From NCBI GenBank assembly GCA_964551445.1, contig CAZKCG010000014.1, forward strand, positions 38,689 to 102,688: DNA of 64,000 nucleotides. The letters are read 5' to 3'. The position numbers were made by a program, and so were the translations under genes. Shown one piece after another: positions 4,028 through 39,735 of this stretch (position 1 is the stretch's first letter; every line of letters starts with the position of its first letter). The notes beneath the pieces were generated by a model. The model was not told the origin of the DNA and did not search any database. It was given only the letters and a program-made list of their open reading frames with translations. Source of the DNA: an uncultured bacterium. GTDB taxonomy: Bacteria > Muiribacteriota > UBA9980.

Positions 4028-4402
4028 TTATGGCCGGGTTATATATTTCTCCAGCTCGAAACTTTTCTTTTCTTCGGTGGCTAAAAACATTCCATTTTTA
4101 TTTGAAAATACCGAACCGGAAGCCGAGCCGGAACCGCCGCAGAAAACGATCAGCGGAGTATCCGCGCTCAGCTTTCTTAGTTCGATCGCCACTTCAAAAC
4201 CAGTAACGGCCCTCATGAACATTTCAATGTAAACAGCATCGAATTTATGTCGTTCCAGAAGCCCGGCGGCTTTTTCCAGAGAGTCGGTTATCACCGCCGA
4301 ACAGCCATTCTCATAAAGAAATCCGTTTATTTTTAACGCCTTTTTTTCATCATCTTCTATCAAAAGCACCAGATGCATATTATTCAGCTTACCTTCCCTC
4401 AT
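4028..4402 (-). CDS. Stand-alone CheY-like receiver domain protein, degenerate (Glu at the phospho-acceptor position)
   Basis: beta1 is LVLLIEDDE (acidic pair conserved). The beta3 segment FDAVYIEMF has Glu where D57 is expected, and the T87 and K109 equivalents are not conserved. It overlaps the cheA stop by 14 nt (alternative start ATG at 4378). Confidence 0.6.
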   Translation of the reverse strand: MREGKLNNMHLVLLIEDDEKKALKINGFLYENGCSAVITDSLEKAAGLLERHKFDAVYIEMFMRAVTGFEVAIELRKLSADTPLIVFCGGSGSASGSVFSNKNGMFLATEEKKSFELEKYITRP

Positions 4403-6863
4403 ATCTTGAAATATCGAAGGTTTTTATTTCCTCTGTCTGCAGAGCTATTTTGAATTTATCCGCCTCACTCGAACTCACGAATAAAATTTTAAAATACATT
4501 TCAAAATTACCTTTATCGATCTCTTCCATCGTGGGTATGGTTTTAACGACGTCGCCATATTCTTTGAGGCTTTTGAAGAGCATGAAAGCATTGACCATTT
4601 TCATCGGAAGGTCAGGGACGAATTCGACAAGTATCGAATAAAGTTTCATCTCCTGAGCTATCTTTTCCGAGATCACGAGATTTTCATAAGCGGTTATCTG
4701 AAATTTTTCTGTTTTAACGTCGATCACTCTGACAAGTTTTTTTTCGGGAGTATCTTCCTTGAATTTCAAAACGCGCTCTTTAACAGCGGCATTCGAAACA
4801 ACCGGCTTAACTCCGTTCGCGATGGATTTCATACATTCTTCGAAAAATTTCAAAACATCGAATAAAAGATCTACCCGTTCTTCGTCGATAAACTCTAATC
4901 CGCTTCTCACCTTATCAAGCATGGTTTCGAGTTCGTGGGCTATCTCGGACATATTTTTAATTCCAAGCATGGCAGTTGAGCTTTTTATTGTGTGGACCGC
5001 CCGGAATATTTCTTTGACCGCTTCAGCATCTTCAGCGTTTTTTTCAAGATTTAAAATAGATTGCGTCATCATTGACAGGTTCTTTTGCGTATCAAGCGCG
5101 AAAGTTTCATAATCCTCCAAAAGTTCGACCTCATAAAATATGTTTTCTTCAGAACCGGCGGCATGCCCGACATCCTCTTTAACCGTTATACCTACCGCCC
5201 TTATTTGCTTTTCATCGATATTTAATTTCCCGGCTATATCTTTTGGCAAAATATTTGAAATCACGAAAAATTTGATACTCATATCGAAATTTTCAGGTGA
5301 AAAATCTATTATATTATCCGCTATTTGTGCGGTCATTGGAACTACAAAAAGGATATCGCCGCAGGTTTTTATTTTTTGATAAATATCAAACCGAGATTTT
5401 TCAGCTTTGATGATATCTTTTTCAAGCATGAGATCGATCTCATAAACCGGTTCATTATTATTGAAAGCATCGAGCAGTTTTCCCTGTGAATTAAGGGCGA
5501 TCTCGAGCATTACAGCCGGATCTATGTTTGAATCTATCTCGATCTTATATTTTTTAAGAGAATTTTCTTTTTGTTTGACGGACTGCTTTTTTGCTTGAAG
5601 CCCTGTATCTTCAGGATTAACACTCGATACAGCAGCGGTTTTCGAAGCATTTTCACGGCCCATGGCAAGATTTATTATTTCGGAAGCGTCGATTATAAGC
5701 CCGACCGTATCGCCGCTTAAAAGCGTCGTGCCCGAGATTCCCCGTATGTTGCTGAAACAGTCATCGAGCATTTTTATCACTATTTTTTGAGGCGGAAGGA
5801 AGCGATCGACGCATATCCCTATTACATCATCGCGTTCCATCACCACGACAATATTTTTGACTGTTTTTGGAGACGTTCCCGCCATCCTTCTGTATAATAA
5901 AGCGGTCAGATCGTATACCGTAAGAGTGCTTCCTCTGAACATTATAGTGCACTGACCCGAAACTGACCGAAGGTCCGCTTCGCTGACCGAAAGCGTCGCG
6001 ACCACGGTGGAAATAGGTATGGCGTATATCGATCCGGCGACATCTATCATAAGCGCGTCGGTTATATTTACGGCCGAAATAATGGGGATCTTGAATGTAA
6101 ACCGTGTTCCTTCATGTAGTTTCGAACTTATACTGATAACGCCGTTAAGTTTTTCCACGCTGGTCTTGACCACGTCCATGCCTACGCCGCGCCCTGAAAC
6201 TTCGGAAACGGTCTCACGCGTCGAAAAACCGGGAAGCAAAATAAATTCATATTTTTCCTCCCTCGTCATTTTCTCGAGTTTTTCAGGCGTCGTAAGCTCA
6301 CGATCGAGCGCTTTGGCGCAGACTTTTTCGAGGTCGATACCGCTGCCGTCGTCTTCGACTTCGACATATATAAAGCGGTCTTTTTTATAGGCGTTTATTG
6401 AAACACGGCCTTCGGCCGGCTTATTATTGGCCTGACGCGCTTCGGACGATTCGATGCCGTGATCGACCGAGTTTCTGATAACGTGAATAAGCGCGCCTGA
6501 CAGTTCCTCTATTATTGTTTTATCCACCAAAGTCTCATTTCCCGAAGCCATGAATTTAACAGGTTTCCCCTGTGTCTTCGAAAGATCGCGCACGAGTCGC
6601 TGAAGCGTGATCATCGTTTCCTTGAACTCGACCTGCCTTATGTCCATTACGTTTTTATGAAGATGGTTGGCGGTCTGGCGCGAGGTCATAGAGATCTGTT
6701 TTATAAGGTTGAACGTGGTTTTATCCAGTGGTTTTTGACCGGCGAATATCTCGTCAGCCGCTTTTTCGAGAATGGCAAGCCGCGTTCCGGTTATTATGAC
6801 CTCGCCGGTCTGGTCAAGCAATTTATTAAGATAAGACATCTTTACCTGGATAGTTTCTTCCAT
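4389..6863 (-). CDS. cheA: Chemotaxis histidine kinase CheA with permuted domain order (P3-P4-P5-X-P1(HPt)-P2)
   Basis: N-terminus is the P3 dimerization segment (MSYLNKLLDQTGEVIITGTRLA). It has the HATPase N-box HVIRNSVDHGIE, G-boxes (DDGSGID, GRGVGMD, GTRFTFKIP) and a CheW-like P5. Then an HPt signature FRAVHTIKSSTAMLG sits near residue 640. The C-terminal segment MVNAFMLFKSLKEYGDVVKTIPTMEEIDKGNFEMYFKILF matches a CheY-binding P2 domain. RBS AAGGTG precedes the ATG, and there are in-frame stops upstream. Confidence 0.85.
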   Translation of the reverse strand: MEETIQVKMSYLNKLLDQTGEVIITGTRLAILEKAADEIFAGQKPLDKTTFNLIKQISMTSRQTANHLHKNVMDIRQVEFKETMITLQRLVRDLSKTQGKPVKFMASGNETLVDKTIIEELSGALIHVIRNSVDHGIESSEARQANNKPAEGRVSINAYKKDRFIYVEVEDDGSGIDLEKVCAKALDRELTTPEKLEKMTREEKYEFILLPGFSTRETVSEVSGRGVGMDVVKTSVEKLNGVISISSKLHEGTRFTFKIPIISAVNITDALMIDVAGSIYAIPISTVVATLSVSEADLRSVSGQCTIMFRGSTLTVYDLTALLYRRMAGTSPKTVKNIVVVMERDDVIGICVDRFLPPQKIVIKMLDDCFSNIRGISGTTLLSGDTVGLIIDASEIINLAMGRENASKTAAVSSVNPEDTGLQAKKQSVKQKENSLKKYKIEIDSNIDPAVMLEIALNSQGKLLDAFNNNEPVYEIDLMLEKDIIKAEKSRFDIYQKIKTCGDILFVVPMTAQIADNIIDFSPENFDMSIKFFVISNILPKDIAGKLNIDEKQIRAVGITVKEDVGHAAGSEENIFYEVELLEDYETFALDTQKNLSMMTQSILNLEKNAEDAEAVKEIFRAVHTIKSSTAMLGIKNMSEIAHELETMLDKVRSGLEFIDEERVDLLFDVLKFFEECMKSIANGVKPVVSNAAVKERVLKFKEDTPEKKLVRVIDVKTEKFQITAYENLVISEKIAQEMKLYSILVEFVPDLPMKMVNAFMLFKSLKEYGDVVKTIPTMEEIDKGNFEMYFKILFVSSSEADKFKIALQTEEIKTFDISRYEGR

Positions 6864-31277: not shown

Positions 31278-32357
31278 ATGAAAATAAGACACACGTCATC
31301 GCTTCTTACAACTCTTGGATTTTCGCATGCTCTCGTTGACGCAGTATGCGCCGCCGTCACGCTCGGAAGCGTCTTCAATCATAACATCACTGGCGAATCC
31401 GCCGTATTTTTAATTTTATTATATAATATCCTGGCTTTTGGAATGCAGGCTATAATAGGTTTTGGCGTCGACCGTATGAGGATATCGAAAATTTCATCGA
31501 TAGCCGGCATAGTTATTACTGCATCATCTATTTTCTTCGCCGGTTATTCGGCCGTCGCGGCGGTCGTAACCGCCGGACTGGGTAACGCTATTTTTCATGT
31601 CGGCGGCGGGAGGACGGCCCTTATAATGAAGCCGGAAAACGCTTCGATACCAGGAGTTTATGTTGCTCCCGGCGCCGTCGGTTTATTGATCGGCACTCTT
31701 TCGGCCAAATACCTCGACATAGCATCAGGTCCAATGCTGATCATCGCTGTTCTTTCGATAACCGCGCTTTCAATGTCGGTTTTTCCGGATGAAGACACAA
31801 GGTTCTCAAGGATCATCGCATTAAAAGATCCGGGCGGAATTGCAGTTTCTATGCTGCTTTTTTCGATAGCCGTCAGATCGTTCATAGGCTTCTCAATAAC
31901 CATGCCATGGAAAGACGATATGCTGCTTTTAATAACACTTACACTCGCCATATCCACCGGAAAGGCAGCTGGCGGTTTTTTTGCGGACAGGTTCGGCTGG
32001 GTCGAAACCGGCGCCGGCGCTCTGATTCTTTCGGCGCCGCTCATCTCGTTTCACAACGGATCGCCGGTTCATGCAATTATAGGATTCATGCTTTTTAACA
32101 TGACGATGCCGGTGACCCTTGCCGCGATGTTCAGACTTTTTCCCGGTTATCCGGGTTATTCATTCGGCCTTACCTGCCTCGCGCTCATAACCGGAATGCT
32201 TCCGGCGTTCACGCAACTTCGCGAATTTTGCGCTCCTTATTTTATTATCACGCTGATTTTATTATCGGCTGCTACTCTTTATACAGGTATCCAAAGAATC
32301 GAATACATCTCACGTACCGGTACGGAAATCACTGATACATTAAAGAACACGGCTTAA
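31278..32357 (+). CDS. Polytopic integral membrane protein with an internal duplication; function unknown
   Basis: About 10 predicted TM helices. The two halves share patterns (…LAFGMQAIIGFGVDRMR… and …AISTGKAAGGFFADRFG…). Confidence 0.5.
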   Translation: MKIRHTSSLLTTLGFSHALVDAVCAAVTLGSVFNHNITGESAVFLILLYNILAFGMQAIIGFGVDRMRISKISSIAGIVITASSIFFAGYSAVAAVVTAGLGNAIFHVGGGRTALIMKPENASIPGVYVAPGAVGLLIGTLSAKYLDIASGPMLIIAVLSITALSMSVFPDEDTRFSRIIALKDPGGIAVSMLLFSIAVRSFIGFSITMPWKDDMLLLITLTLAISTGKAAGGFFADRFGWVETGAGALILSAPLISFHNGSPVHAIIGFMLFNMTMPVTLAAMFRLFPGYPGYSFGLTCLALITGMLPAFTQLREFCAPYFIITLILLSAATLYTGIQRIEYISRTGTEITDTLKNTA

Positions 32358-32360
32358 ATC

Positions 32361-32705
32361 ATGAATTTAATAACCGCTTTATTTTTAACGATAATAATTG
32401 AAACTTTCACGGCCATATTATTCGGCTATAAAAAGCGGCGCGAACTTTTGGCTGTCGCGATCGTAAGCCTGGTCACCAATCCGGCGCTTAATTTATTCAT
32501 TGCCGCGGCATATTATTTGAAATTCATAAACATAAGTATCGGGCTCATATTATTTCTCGAATTGGTCGTCGTCGTTGTCGAATGGCGTATGCTGAAAAAA
32601 ATGCTGCTCAAAAGTTCAAACGATCTGCTCCTTCTTTCGTTCGCGATGAATTCAGCTTCATTTATGACGGGGCTGTTGTTAAGTTATCCGGTATTAAATC
32701 AATGA
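32361..32705 (+). CDS. Small hydrophobic membrane protein (~114 aa, 3-4 TM); function unknown
   Basis: Highly hydrophobic ORF immediately downstream of the previous gene, at the edge of an AT-rich islet. Confidence 0.4.
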   Translation: MNLITALFLTIIIETFTAILFGYKKRRELLAVAIVSLVTNPALNLFIAAAYYLKFINISIGLILFLELVVVVVEWRMLKKMLLKSSNDLLLLSFAMNSASFMTGLLLSYPVLNQ

Positions 32706-32719
32706 GGAACGATATAATT

Positions 32720-33148
32720 ATGATGAAATCAATTTTTATTTTGACAGCGTTATTTGTTTTGGCATCATTTGACGCCGCCCGTGCCGATGCTGTTAGCTAT
32801 TTAGCAGTCGGACTCGAGTTGCCGCTTCTTTTACTCAGCTTGCTATGTTTCATGATCTGTATTACAATGAAATTTTATTTGAATATAAAATATCCAGATA
32901 ACACATCTCGCCCAACCAAAGATAGTGAACCCGAGCGTGAAACGGACAATGACGGTTCCGGCTTAAACAAAATAATCAAAACTGGTATGCTGCTCACAAG
33001 ATACATATTTTATTTTGCGTTGTTTGTCACGGCGTTATCCTTTTTGGAGATCAGCTGTTCTTATAATAGAGAAAGATCACCGAGAGGTCTTTTCAACAAA
33101 TCTGAGCCGAAAACAGTTAAACCTACCCTTGAAAATTTAAGGTACTGA
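32720..33148 (+). CDS. Hypothetical exported/membrane protein (signal peptide + TM) in the AT-rich islet
   Basis: ATG at 32720 with GAGGA 11 nt upstream. N-terminus is MMKSIFILTALFVLASFDAARADA followed by a TM. The N-terminal extension shown in the ORF track (from 32582) overlaps the upstream gene and is rejected. Confidence 0.45.
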   Translation: MMKSIFILTALFVLASFDAARADAVSYLAVGLELPLLLLSLLCFMICITMKFYLNIKYPDNTSRPTKDSEPERETDNDGSGLNKIIKTGMLLTRYIFYFALFVTALSFLEISCSYNRERSPRGLFNKSEPKTVKPTLENLRY

Positions 33149-33177
33149 GTATTAAACAATAATGAAAGGCTATATTC

Positions 33178-34095
33178 ATGAAAACCGATATTCTACTTCT
33201 TGCGTTATTAGCAGTTCTCCTCGATTCAACTCCGGCAGTTGCGGATGGAGTTTCTCCTCCGGTTTCACTGCTGCTTGCAATTCCTTGTCTGGCGATGGGT
33301 ATAATCGGATTAGCAATGTATTTTTCATACCGGATATATTACAAACTTGATAACCCGGATCAAAACAACTATAAAATAAAATTTTACGATCATTATGAAG
33401 ATGACAGTTATGAAATGGCCGAAAAATCTAAAAAAGCCTGTGAATACTCACGAACTGCGAAATTTTCATTTATGCTCGCAATAATGCTATTAATGTTATC
33501 GGTATACGAGGAAGATTGTCAGAGCCGCAGCAAAACGGCAAGATTGCATAACAGAAATACGCCTGAAATAATCAGATTTCATAATCGCAGCAACTTTTGC
33601 TTGTCAATAAATGATGCAATTCGATCTTTTCGATATCGCAAAAACAAATTTCCGCGTGATTTGCATGAATTGAAACAAAACACTGAAAACATTCAAGATA
33701 AATTAATCGATCCATTAACAAATGTTTCCGACTGGGAAGTTCGCAGCTATTGTAACCAAGATGAATGGTATCGAACAGCAATAATCCCTTACTATCCAAG
33801 TTTACCACTATGGAACCCGGAAGCGCAATTTATGAAATGGCCGCGAAAAAATTTCATTCCAGATTTTAGAGTTGTAAATTTTATTGACGACCAGATTACT
33901 GAAAAATCAAAATGGATGAAGTACTCTTATAATGGCCAAGATTTTTTTTATATCAGTTCAACAGATATTTTAGATGAAGTGATACCGGTTTGGCATCAAT
34001 CATCGATTGACGGAATTATAGAAGTGAGGCCTCGAAAAGTTCCGGAGGAAGATAAAATTTTGCAACATATTAGAGAAATGCAATCAGAATATTAG
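33178..34095 (+). CDS. Hypothetical exported/membrane protein (signal peptide + TM + ~240-aa Cys/Trp-containing domain) in the AT-rich islet
   Basis: N-terminus MKTDILLLALLAVLLDSTPAVADG then a TM, the same architecture as the preceding gene. Local GC is clearly below the window average. Confidence 0.5.
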   Translation: MKTDILLLALLAVLLDSTPAVADGVSPPVSLLLAIPCLAMGIIGLAMYFSYRIYYKLDNPDQNNYKIKFYDHYEDDSYEMAEKSKKACEYSRTAKFSFMLAIMLLMLSVYEEDCQSRSKTARLHNRNTPEIIRFHNRSNFCLSINDAIRSFRYRKNKFPRDLHELKQNTENIQDKLIDPLTNVSDWEVRSYCNQDEWYRTAIIPYYPSLPLWNPEAQFMKWPRKNFIPDFRVVNFIDDQITEKSKWMKYSYNGQDFFYISSTDILDEVIPVWHQSSIDGIIEVRPRKVPEEDKILQHIREMQSEY

Positions 34096-34113: not shown

Positions 34114-37100
34114 TTAAAGTTTCCCGCGCTTGGCCGGCCTCGCCGCGAGACCCGCCAGAATGAATATTATTCCCATGGAAAAACCCGCGAACAGATAGTT
34201 CATGCTGTTTTCATTATATTGAAAAATGGCCAGGCAATATATCAAAGAGATCGCCGCGAAGATCACGGCGCGCCTGTATCTTTTAGTTTTAAATATCGCC
34301 ATAACGGCCCAGACCGCTAAAATCACGCCCATGATATACCCGCCGAAAGCTAAAATTTCAAAGACCTTGTTCGAATAAAAGGAAAACTCGATGAAATAAA
34401 GCGGCGCGTTCTCAAAGCCGTCCGATTTTTTCAGATTTTCACCGCTTAAGTGAAGCGCGTTCGTCGCGAGTTCGGGAAACTCCGTCGAAACAGGCAAAAA
34501 GCCTTTTGCGTCGCCGCCGAATCGCATAAGCGGCGCCGGAAACCCTTGTGAAACTACGCCCTGATCCGATCCGGGTCCGGGCGAATTACCCGAAAGATAT
34601 GCCGCCTTCAATTTCTGCTGGACGGCTATCATCTCATCGACCGAAAGCGGCTTTCCGGACCCGGCGTCCATGAATTCGACTGCGCCCGCCGAAGCTGAAA
34701 GTCTTAAATTACTACTTATACCGGATAGCTGATAGCTGTCCATAAAATAAAACTCCCAGCTTATTCGCGAACACATAACGTCTATACGCGGGAGCTCGAA
34801 CTTCGCGGCGCCGAAATTTTCAAATTCAGCCGTTTTGGTCAGATAAACCAGTTCCACCATAAATGATCTGAATTCGTTATCCATAAGCGGCGATTTTAAA
34901 AGCGGTATGAAAACCGAGCCTTCCTCGTTTCTCGCCGGCTTAACAAGCCTTTCCCCGACCTTAAGGCTCCATGTTTTAGAGTTCGCGGGCAGGCGCATCC
35001 TTAAAAACTGAACGTTGTTATTTCTTACCTGATAACGCGCGCGCGTCAGAATATACCCGGCTTTCGTGACGAAGCTCTTATAGTCGGCCGAATCTATCAC
35101 GCACGGAATGGACGGCAGATCGGTATTTTTATTTATCGCAAGCGTCAGAGAGCATGGAAATTTCGATGTTTTGTATGAAAAAAGAACCGGCGAAAGCGCG
35201 CTTCTTTTTAAACCGCCGGGAATTTCCCGCTCGTCTATCGGCGTGAGATCGACCGTTTTAGTAACGCTGATATCGGCGTTTACCGATGAATCCAGCGCTA
35301 TATATAATTTTTTTTCATCCGCGTTCCGGGGCATCACCCACGGCGCGTTCACTTCTTTTTTCATGTCAGCTATCTGGCGCTCATAATCTATGGCAACGCT
35401 TAACTGCCCTTTCTGAGGCGCCCTGAATGTTACGGTTAAAATTTTGCCGCTTTTTTCGCTGAGCTTATCGCCTGGCTTATCGCCTGGCTTATCGCCTGGC
35501 TTATCGCCTGGCTTATCGCCGAGCTTATCGCCGGCCGCGGCCGTGATCTTCCAATCGTATATTTCAGCGGATGAATTCACCCGCGTTATAAGCGTTTCAG
35601 GCTGGATATCAAACTGCAGTTCGCGCAGCATAGTGTTTTCTATGTTATAATTATTCGTAATAACGGATGAAAAGCGTTCTTCTTCTACCGTCAATATCTG
35701 CGTTGAACTCACGCTGACGCGGGGTTCGCTTTTCGGAACCATCGTTCTGACCTCTTCCGATCTCGCGGCCTCTTCACGCGCTACTCTCATGCGTTTCTCG
35801 CGCTCACGCTGTTTCTTGTATTTTTCGTTGCGGATCTTCTCCTGAAGCGTTAACCGGAAGCGGTAGAAGCCGGCCGGAACGAGATTCGCGGAAGTTAAGA
35901 CCTCCGCCGTCCCGTCATCCGATCTCTGCGTTCGTATTATAAGGCCTGACGCGCTAATATCATATCCGGCGGGCGATCTTAATTCCATCATCATAAGCGG
36001 GCACTTCCCGGGCGAGAGATCGAAATAACGGTCGTCTTTATCGGATGCCAGGTCGGTCTTTAACGATACTTTGACCCGATATTCGCCGCGTCCTTCGAAA
36101 ACGGCCGAGTAGTTATCTTTAAAAGGCAATATCCTAACGGTTCCGCTTGCCCGGCCGTCATCATTCGAAGTTTTAGCGAAAGGTTTTATCAGGCTGGATT
36201 CCACCGTCGTTAAAGCGACGTTTCCAGAAAACAGCTGGACACGGGTATAATCGTCGTCGAAAATATCGATGAAATATTCGATATCTATATCCGCATGGCC
36301 GGCTGTAACGACAGCCGATATCAGCATTTTCTTTACGAGGTCCTTATACGGCAGGCTTTCACATTCCGCCGTGCCTTCAGGCAGTTTCAGGCTCACGCCG
36401 CCTTTTTCAACAGCACTTACCGAATCGAGTAAAAATTTCAGGTTGGCGTATTTTATAAAAACTCCGGATGATCTCTTTTTTAAAATATATCTGTTAAGAT
36501 CGCTCAGTTGAAAGAGCTGGACGTCGAGGGTCGCCGGATTATAAACGAGCTCTATCGCTCCCGGCGCGTCCGGTTTAAATTCGCCCGCCAAAGCCCCGGA
36601 GGGAATAGCGCATAACGCTGAAACGGTTATCGCCGCATATATAAACATCGCAAGCGTCGTTTCAGAAGCTGACGCGCGCGTGTTATCCGTTCCGGCCTTT
36701 CCGGCGGGCGCTCCGGATTCAAATAGTATCTTTATAAAGGTCCGATATATTCCGGGATCGGAAACGATCGATATAAGCTTCAGCGTAAAAAAAAATATCA
36801 CGCCGCAAAGCAAGCCTATCTGAGGATATTTTGCGATTTGCGGAATATATGCGTTCACGGTTTCCATAATTATAATTATTAAAAGCGCCGCGAGGATCAT
36901 CAAAACGGATCGCGGGCTGAAATCGAACGCGCCGCCTAGAAAATATGGCAGAACCAATCCCGATATCACAAGAACCGCCGATAATAACATATACGATCCG
37001 GATGTCATATATGAAATATTGATGAAAATATCCTGGTCCGGCATCACGAATTTTTTGTTCAGCAAATAGAACGTATTCGTCTTGACGAGATTGACTGGAA

Positions 37101-39735: not shown

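Follow-up and report, generated by a model that had tools for sequence, protein, structure and literature searches.

The stretch of DNA analysed here, referred to below as the window (64,000 nucleotides of contig CAZKCG010000014.1, assembly GCA_964551445.1, from an uncultured bacterium of the Muiribacteriota), encodes on its minus strand a giant membrane protein of 1873 aa, and a genuine GspG-like pseudopilin module is embedded in the middle of this protein. The hydrophobic first part of the pilin helix (alpha1N) evolves here like an ordinary transmembrane (TM) helix, and no region of the protein is under stronger constraint than the soluble part of the pseudopilin. We propose, with a probability of about 0.45, that the module is a membrane-locked pilin mimic, which couples a giant periplasmic scaffold to the pseudopilin system of the cell. 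Features and coordinates are collected in Table 1.

The embedded module is a GspG-type pseudopilin

A GspG-like module had been claimed in an initial annotation made from the sequence of the window, and both profile searches and structure prediction agree with this claim. The peptides quoted in its support (ISMPQF, AKSTKARQDCDTFSQAVQKY, LKDPWGNRYELDF and SKGPDGRAGTKDDI) are all present, at aa 745-842. Pfam T2SSG (PF08334) matched aa 754-834 over profile positions 6-104 of 108 with 21.9 bits, a marginal score above the gathering cut-off of 21, and the NCBIfam gspG model TIGR01710 matched aa 729-836 with 24.5 bits, which is far under its equivalog cut-off of 88.85. In a phmmer comparison with the sequences of the PDB, PulG and GspG chains were the top matches, and the hydrophobic helix was aligned with mature PulG residues 3-51. 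An AlphaFold2 (AF2) model of aa 640-1060, computed from an alignment of 31 sequences, contains one 52-residue helix (aa 729-780) and a small beta-sheet, with a predicted local distance difference test score of ~97 over aa ~759-839, i.e. over the globular head and the adjoining end of the second part of the helix (alpha1C). The ‘lollipop’ fold of pilins, an alpha1 of ~50 residues with a beta-sheet head packed on alpha1C, is thereby seen in the model, and EpsG and PulG were the top structural matches when the head was used in a fold comparison.

In the alignment, SKGPDGRAGTKDDI corresponds to FSLGPDGVPESNDDI of PulG, and its S, G, D and D columns do not vary within the subfamily. The calcium ligands of the GxDG...DD loop are presumably those of the EpsG and PulG structures, and the apparently intact loop of this type may bind calcium. 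The invariants of the subfamily are A-K-Q-D-C-D-T on alpha1C, LKGKY, DPWGxxY, SxGPD and DD. The first of these (aa 761-768, nt about 37432-37455, with the single cysteine C766) is invariant in 12 aligned embedded, free or anchored members and is not found in classical GspG.

The giant gene is a single frame in independent assemblies

The gene starts with ATG, has a GGAGG ribosome-binding site 7 nt upstream, and contains no internal stop, as expected from the initial annotation of a single uninterrupted reading frame of 1873 aa. The coordinates given there were also correct; the strand, which had been left unstated, is minus, the plus-strand frame of 34114-39735 being full of stops. Orthologues were sought in species-representative genomes, and one related metagenome-assembled genome (MAG) was found to carry the nearest one (L001/L002). 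There the gene is split over two contigs overlapping by 12 residues, each piece is in a single frame, and the pieces share 67-70% identity with the window protein, while flanking housekeeping genes share 86-95%. A near-identical partial protein labelled Candidatus Wallbacteria bacterium (P0008, HNY11766.1) ends at TM cluster 2 and makes Candidatus Wallbacteria the probable phylum of the window. A more distant orthologue on a metagenome contig (L011, 58% identity over the middle region) is read in one unbroken frame that begins in module A, includes the pseudopilin and runs to the C-terminal stop. A first metagenome scan with the whole protein as query gave no match, and only 4 matches came from a word-indexed protein search in which the head was the sole query.

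It is extremely improbable that a frameshift, a mis-assembly or a collapsed locus fused an ordinary gspG with its neighbours, as had been considered for this locus. In one distant lineage (L009) the two super-modules are indeed separate adjacent genes (P0044, followed by a separate super-module protein of 1319 aa), and TM8, the last helix of TM cluster 2, is signal-peptide-like (...SALCAIPSGALA|GE). Even in L009, however, head and upstream module form one protein, the junctions are under strong purifying selection, and module A, TM helices, head, conserved motif and second TM cluster are joined in one stop-free frame in the independent assemblies L001/L002, P0008 and L011, module B being also covered by L001/L002 together and by L011.

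The prepilin signal is lost and the head is conserved

A class III signal peptide is N-terminal, with a hydrophilic leader whose last residue is invariably Gly or Ala and, after it, a stretch of 20-25 hydrophobic residues; Glu5 of mature type IV pilins is frequent, though not universal (PMC10191384). The giant protein carries no such signal at its N-terminus, and the pseudopilin module starts at aa 727, directly after hydrophobic helices. The absence of a prepilin-peptidase motif had been noticed in the initial annotation, and our searches agree: neither N_methyl (PF07963) nor TIGR02532 matched the giant protein, whereas the free homologues of ~320-340 aa matched both above cut-off. When alpha1N is aligned to FSLIELMIVIAIIGILVAVALPQF of the free prepilins and to PulG, Gly-1, Phe+1 and Glu+5 are all missing, the -1/+1/+5 positions being S/V/K in the window protein, A/V/K in the relative and I/E/P in L011. 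Pro22 is retained, and Gly14 is retained in two of the three. An internal start that would create a prepilin leader was ruled out by the lack of any Met between aa 687 and 748, and pairing of Lys+5 with Glu5 of a neighbouring free pseudopilin was also discarded, because L011 has Pro at this position.

In true pilins, alpha1N is the most conserved segment. The opposite pattern was found here when dN/dS was determined by the Nei-Gojobori method between the window gene and its nearest orthologue, and identity was compared across the window, the relative and L011 (three-way identity). As dS is ~1.1 and thus near saturation, all dN/dS values are approximate. For alpha1N, dN/dS was 0.34 and three-way identity 22%, which is similar to the TM clusters (0.18-0.35 and 20-39%). 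Much lower values were obtained for alpha1C (0.04, 68%), the head (0.046, 58%) and the conserved motif at aa 876-912 (0.03, 57%), with modules A and B in between (0.14-0.16; 61% for the end of module A, 38% for module B). Taken together, alpha1C and head (aa 752-842) share 86% identity with the nearest orthologue.

Because the class III signal peptide is missing, the pseudopilin is most probably not cut by prepilin peptidase, and since the module would be held by other TM helices, it is not expected to polymerise. It is highly improbable that prepilin peptidase or another membrane protease cuts before alpha1N and that the C-terminal product then enters a fibre. Such processing could be accommodated by the small -1 residue of two orthologues (Ser and Ala), given that Ala is a possible last residue of leader peptides and is found at -1 in a few free homologues, and Glu5 can be missing in tip subunits. 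On the other hand, -1 is Ile in L011, +1, +5 and alpha1N as a whole are not conserved, the preceding sequence is a hydrophobic helix instead of a hydrophilic leader, and seven downstream TM helices would retain the product and prevent its extraction into a fibre. Nucleation or capping of a pilus-like fibre, which had been suggested as a function, is unlikely as well. It would require a tip subunit to exit the membrane, whereas ~9-11 other TM helices hold this module, and its alpha1N is without pilin-like constraint.

Predicted membrane topology places the head in the periplasm

The initial annotation had described a signal or TM segment at the N-terminus followed by several TM clusters, and this description stands, with a signal peptide of the Sec type and clusters at aa 656-750 (alpha1N included), 914-1045 and 1793-1866. 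The signal peptide may be cleaved at AVEA|A. A lipoprotein signal (VGSGC) was ruled out, since residue -3 is not Leu, Val or Ile and an ordinary signal of the AxA type is present in the relative. Topology was predicted from hydropathy in three orthologues, charge and helix parity. Together with alpha1N, cluster 1 has two strong helices (aa 678-700 and 729-750) and two marginal ones; H0, H1 and H2 of this cluster are all helices in the AF2 model, with a three-way identity of only 20%. The KR-rich loop of cluster 2 (aa 993-1024) is placed inside, and the KTKRYRR loops and the basic C-terminus put this side of cluster 3 in the cytoplasm. With even helix counts in clusters 1 and 2 and an odd count in cluster 3, module A, the pseudopilin head and module B would all face the periplasm.

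The label ‘surface protein’ was not sustained, as Wallbacteria are diderm Terrabacteria with OmpM (bioRxiv 10.1101/2021.05.31.446380); the most plausible reading is a polytopic protein of the inner membrane, three parts of which are periplasmic.

The head occupies a variable central slot of a giant protein family

Modules A and B are paralogous, with a collinear alignment at E 2e-22, and both align in BLASTP and jackhmmer searches to repeated modules of seven distant giants (P0001-P0007, 1073-2998 aa) from Verrucomicrobia (Roseibacillus), Planctomycetes (Thermoguttaceae) and metagenomes, e.g. a hypothetical protein of Roseibacillus ishigakijimensis. Local jackhmmer searches gave a common family design: R repeats of ~170 aa lead to a terminal R+C unit with W-x-[IV]-x-[VI]-P at its end, and a TM cluster comes next. 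A protein has two such combinations of super-module and TM cluster, or two adjacent genes encode one each. The window protein follows the design, with R+C units at aa 330-655 and 1337-1682 and TM helices after each. Its central loop also has the family arrangement of a pilin-like insert and a G-[VI]-x-[SP]-[VLI]-x-[VI]... motif with a TM helix. This motif (aa 876-912) shares 94% identity with the nearest orthologue and has counterparts in P0001, P0002, P0007 and P0044; AF2 confidence is low there. A profile of the R+C module found no relative by sequence among solved structures. The fold search returned only generic beta-sandwich matches (OST1/ribophorin I and the M1 aminopeptidase N-domain), and hence no catalytic function can be assigned to this module.

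The content of the central loop differs between family members. P0044, a metagenomic protein of 1902 aa (L009), is collinear with the window protein over the module end, TM cluster and head (26.5% identity, E 8e-30), and its head shares 43% identity with the window head versus 76% with the free prepilin P0024. In a neighbour-joining tree on alpha1C and head (31 sequences, 100 bootstrap replicates), P0044 was grouped with P0024 at 83%, the three Wallbacteria-type embedded heads were grouped together at 62% among free pseudopilins, and monophyly of all embedded heads was obtained in 0 of 100 replicates. In P0001 and P0002 the first TM cluster is directly followed by ...AILSVLSAMLLPALSAANRKAQRINSVNNLKQVGLAAHIF...VLYADGSV, a pilin-like domain of the H-X9-DG/DUF1559 type. 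This segment alone gave only sub-threshold pilin matches in a profile search; it had 1374 significant homologues in a large protein collection, and nearly all of those listed are prepilin-type N_methyl/DUF1559 ‘H-X9-DG’ proteins of 240-280 aa (best, 56% identity over 96% of the segment). The Planctomycete member P0007 carries two secretin/TonB N-terminal (STN) repeats in its central loop (38.1 bits vs a cut-off of 28.4), and in P0003-P0005 the loop has TM helices only and no domain. Because these proteins differ at the same position, the central loop is, on sequence comparison, a variable slot that has apparently been given, or converted to, the pilin type of its own lineage repeatedly. It would seem that a pilus subunit has been re-used more than once as a fixed, membrane-anchored part.

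At L005, L006 and L009 the neighbours of the distant giant homologues are genes for extracytoplasmic function (ECF) sigma factors, for an anti-sigma factor (zf-HC2) or for a VWA/SLBB protein, and P0007 itself contains FecR_C and STN. A role in trans-envelope signalling is thus hinted at for those lineages; none of these gene types flanks the window gene.

Free pseudopilins are the closest relatives of the head

A phmmer search with aa 700-915 against 1.84 billion representative proteins gave 380 proteins at E <= 1e-3. After the orthologue, the top matches were proteins of ~320-340 aa in which the domain is N-terminal, with 48-64% identity and a canonical signal, e.g. MLLRSKKG|FSLIELMIVIAIIGILVAVALPQFAAMTEDAKKTKAKQDCDTF... 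at the start of P0010. The window head shares 60-62% identity with the free prepilins P0010 and P0012 (MEZ7891194.1), and 76% with the head of a free pseudopilin from a Wallbacteria MAG (L010). The free pseudopilin genes stand in tandem and adjoin sigma54 response regulators (L007, L010 and L012).

Among the 148 best homologues, a class III signal was recognized in about 50-58, a merely generic hydrophobic N-terminus in about 60-70, and an internal or secreted head in about 21, including tandem heads (P0009) and alpha2-macroglobulin-like proteins (P0104 and P0086). Apparent loss of the pilin signal with retention of the head is common in this subfamily and concerns roughly half of the close homologues. 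The embedded module had been called unusual; uniqueness cannot be claimed, with about half of the close homologues signal-less and giants of other lineages carrying their own pilin-like domains in this slot. P0104 (1873 aa) and P0086 (1986 aa) have three or four tandem GspG C-terminal sub-domains (DPWGxxY...GPD..GT.DD) inserted mid-protein, which is another non-pilin use of the same head. The identical length of P0104 and the window protein is coincidental, and P0104 was rejected as a relative, being an unrelated alpha2-macroglobulin-like protein with tandem DPWG repeats.

Upstream elements are common to the giant gene and free pseudopilin genes

Compared with the relative, the spacer upstream of the giant gene has two conserved islands and is otherwise diverged. 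The candidate sigma54 promoter TGGAATGAGATATGCA has its counterpart TGGAACGGGATATGCA in the relative, conserved inside the diverged intergenic region. The second element, AATGTTGCA, lies in an island of ~35 nt (approximately 39880-39915) conserved with L001, and is the sole copy in the 64-kb window, where 0.36 would be expected. Each of the four free-pseudopilin loci examined (L007, L008, L010 and L012) has the element ATGTTGCA 100-250 nt ahead of the pseudopilin gene, with three copies at the Wallbacteria locus (L010), and canonical TGGCAC-N5-TTGC sigma54 promoters occur just upstream at two of them (L010 and L012). Moreover, the gene upstream of the giant gene in the relative is a sigma54-activator homologue. 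As ATGTTGCA and sigma54-type elements are common to giant and free pseudopilin genes, these genes may belong to a shared regulon of sigma54 and an enhancer-binding protein. A further candidate, TGGAAATGTTGCA, was ruled out as a sigma54 site by its wrong spacing.

A proposed role: a fixed pilin mimic as docking module

In our proposal, the protein would be a polytopic inner-membrane protein of a diderm cell, with a Sec signal and then three periplasmic parts, i.e. super-module A, the central loop with pseudopilin and conserved motif, and super-module B, which three TM clusters anchor and separate. The pseudopilin alpha1N would have been turned into one TM helix, and the head, locked in the membrane, could neither exit nor polymerise. 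The head might then serve as a fixed ‘pilin mimic’, a docking module of the giant periplasmic scaffold for the sigma54-controlled modular pseudopilins of the cell, for their fibre or for the assembly platform, and docking would anchor or position the scaffold relative to the pseudopilin machine. Coupling to this system is suggested by the lineage match of the pilin-type inserts and by upstream elements in common with free pseudopilin genes. Among the functions offered in the initial annotation, that of an anchor stays viable, and the evidence speaks neither for nor against that of an adhesin.

Several observations weigh against this proposal. In the window, where the search for gsp and type IV pilus genes covered ORFs of 100 aa or more, and beside the free pseudopilin genes examined, no assembly gene of a type II secretion system or type IV pilus (ATPase, platform, secretin or prepilin peptidase) was found, and therefore the partner machine is unseen. 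Signal-less forms, whether anchored, secreted or embedded, make up about half of the head's closest homologues, some in tandem and some as inserts of alpha2-macroglobulin-like proteins, and the head can evidently work without a filament. The loops of P0003-P0005 carry no domain, the sigma54-like site is only an 8/11 match and its relaxed pattern alone is no rarer than chance, the topology is a reading of hydropathy, charge and helix parity, and the near-saturated dS makes the selection values rough. PVC (Planctomycetes, Verrucomicrobia, Chlamydiae) genomes contain hundreds of ‘TM helix plus periplasmic head’ paralogues, and the lineage match could merely reflect the availability of such cassettes.

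These points bear on a second explanation, which falls short of even odds and is nevertheless a serious possibility: the head may be an autonomous domesticated domain, captured as a ready-made N-in TM helix with a small, stable, Ca-type periplasmic head, which binds some other ligand or spaces the super-modules and has no link to a pilus or secretion machine. It would explain well why alpha1N is relaxed like any TM helix, why a generic anchor (~60-70 of 148) or an internal or secreted position (about 21, such as P0009, P0104 and P0086) is frequent among the closest homologues, why the loop varies within the family, empty in P0003-P0005 and with STN in P0007, and why assembly genes are absent nearby. 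However, three pilin subtypes occur at the same position, each matching its own lineage, the head retains every residue that is invariant in the free prepilins, and the architecture of ATGTTGCA and a sigma54-type promoter is common to the free pseudopilin genes. Weighing both sides, we prefer the membrane-locked pilin mimic that couples the scaffold to the pseudopilin system.

A wider form of the docking proposal, in which the giants of Wallbacteria, Verrucomicrobia, Planctomycetes and others are a phylum-spanning accessory of type IV filament machines, a scaffold plugging in through a mimic of the lineage's own pilin (or secretin N-domain) and acting as anchor, stator or terminator for the pseudopilus, as a bacterial equivalent of what ArlF/ArlG are in archaea, is possible but not likely.

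Features of the locus and neighbouring genes

Table 1. Features of the giant gene and its upstream region (window positions; aa, residues of the 1873-aa protein)
Feature	Residues	Positions	Strand	Description
Whole ORF	1873 aa + stop	34114..39735	minus	giant membrane protein with two super-modules
Sec-type signal peptide, N-terminal	aa 1-33	39637..39735	minus	hydropathy; hydrophobic core aa 7-25
Periplasmic super-module A (predicted)	aa 34-650	37786..39636	minus	beta-sandwich domains; ends in R+C unit, ...FEWRIFVPEGF
TM cluster 1	aa 656-726	37558..37770	minus	H1 (aa 678-700) strongly hydrophobic; H0, H2 marginal
Pilin alpha1N equivalent	aa 727-751	37483..37557	minus	VD-LVKIGAVLLFFGLIISISMPQF; serves as TM helix
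Pseudopilin alpha1C and globular head	aa 752-842	37210..37482	minus	AKSTKARQDCDT, LKGKY, DPWGNRY, SKGPDG...TKDDI (Ca-loop-like)
Conserved motif GVFSVPVNLVKTNTFYLLNKKFVMPDQDIFINISYM	aa 876-912	37000..37110	minus	leads into TM cluster 2
TM cluster 2	aa 914-1045	36601..36996	minus	four strongly hydrophobic helices; hydropathy
Periplasmic super-module B (predicted)	aa 1046-1690	34666..36600	minus	module A paralogue; ends ...SWEFYFMD
12-nt tandem repeat		35463..35532	minus	5.8 copies, 96% matches; encodes (PGDK)n within module B
TM cluster 3	aa 1793-1866	34138..34359	minus	three helices; KTKRYRR and basic C-terminus inside
Candidate sigma54 -24/-12 promoter TGGAATGAGATATGCA		39796..39811	minus	-76 to -61 from ATG; GG and GC at sigma54 spacing
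AATGTTGCA element, candidate enhancer-binding-protein site		39896..39904	minus	-169 to -161 from ATG

At the position of the (PGDK)n repeat, the related MAG has an unrelated DAADAADAA repeat, and this part of module B looks like a hypervariable spacer. On the 3′ side, four ORFs without family match (359, 114, 188 and 305 aa; 31278-34095, plus strand; GC 0.39 vs ~0.48) separate RNase G from the 3′ end of the giant gene. In the related MAG the giant-gene stop is directly followed by RNase G and the whole block is missing; thus, the block is a lineage-specific insertion. On the other side, a 247-aa membrane ORF (40177-40920) has no family match, and none was found at the corresponding place of the relative. 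Upstream of this ORF, at 41033-41061 on the minus strand, is a perfect sigma70 consensus (TTGACA-17-TATAAT, 12/12). Upstream of the giant gene and of this small ORF, and divergent from them, an ORF of 859 aa (41512-44091, plus strand) encodes the Major Vault Protein domains MVP_shoulder (PF11978, 96.9 bits) and Vault_3 (PF17795, 37.1 bits); its product is a bacterial vault-like protein. Elsewhere in the window, a CheA-like kinase (4389-6863, minus strand) has HATPase_c (aa 124-261), CheW (aa 270-398), Hpt (aa 593-666) and the P2 response-regulator-binding domain (aa 742-819) in an order that is the reverse of canonical CheA, within a chemotaxis cluster with a methyl-accepting chemotaxis protein and two CheW genes.

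Comparison with known systems

What defines a type IV pilin is the class III signal at its N-terminus, and such proteins are regarded as subunits that polymerise. In the giant membrane protein described here, strong selection preserves the pilin fold, whereas both this signal and the helix of the filament core have been lost, and different pilin subtypes appear at the same position in several phyla. Full-text searches of an incomplete literature collection retrieved no description of an embedded uncleavable pilin module or of the giant family. If docking is true, the giants would be a new class of accessory component for type II secretion or type IV pilus-like machines in poorly known phyla and a bacterial parallel to the archaellum stator, and they would partly explain the very large ‘prepilin-like’ paralogue families found in PVC bacteria. 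If docking is false, a clear case of domain domestication is still left, and PF08334 or other pilin-like matches in these phyla should not be read as evidence of secretion systems.

With GspG/EpsG/PulG (PF08334, TIGR01710; PDB 4lw9 and 5wda) the module shares the long alpha1 and small beta-sheet head, the DPWGxxY and SxGPDG...DDI motifs and the equivalent of Pro22 (MPQF). It differs from them in being internal (aa 727-842 of 1873), in lacking a leader, Gly-1/Phe+1/Glu+5 and an N_methyl match, in its score far under the TIGR01710 cut-off, in its non-conserved alpha1N and in its own A-K-Q-D-C-D-T; nor is there a gsp-cluster context (GspD/E/F or minor pseudopilins) among the ORFs of at least 100 aa in the 64-kb window. 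The free modular pseudopilins (P0010, P0012, P0014 and the L010 gene) are closer, with 54-76% identity over alpha1C and head, identical invariants, and the same ATGTTGCA element and sigma54-type upstream architecture, but they have the canonical K/R-G|FSLIELMIVIAIIG class III signal and a C-terminal extension of ~200 aa, both missing in the embedded copy.

Modular type IV pilins such as PilB and PilC of S. sanguinis have an N-terminal IPR012902 module, are processed and polymerised, and carry an extra module grafted C-terminally (PMC8179133). The window protein likewise joins a pilin module with unrelated modules in one polypeptide; this pilin module, by contrast, is internal, without IPR012902-type motifs, and predicted to be unprocessed and membrane-locked. 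ArlF and ArlG (FlaF/FlaG) arose by duplication of archaellins and now serve the archaellum as its anchored stator (PMC8667602, PMC4425475). By analogy, a paralogue of a filament subunit may have been repurposed here too as a static, membrane-anchored accessory; the archaeal proteins, however, are small, separate and monotopic, are encoded in the archaellum operon, have another head fold and are not part of a giant protein.

A further comparison is with the giant family itself (P0001-P0007 and P0044/P0158), which shares with the window protein the R-repeat/R+C units followed by a TM cluster, the two super-modules, the conserved motif with its TM helix and the loop insert. Compared with these relatives, the window protein is shorter, has fewer R repeats, and carries in its loop a GspG-like head of the Wallbacteria type instead of an H-X9-DG-type or P0024-type pilin or STN.

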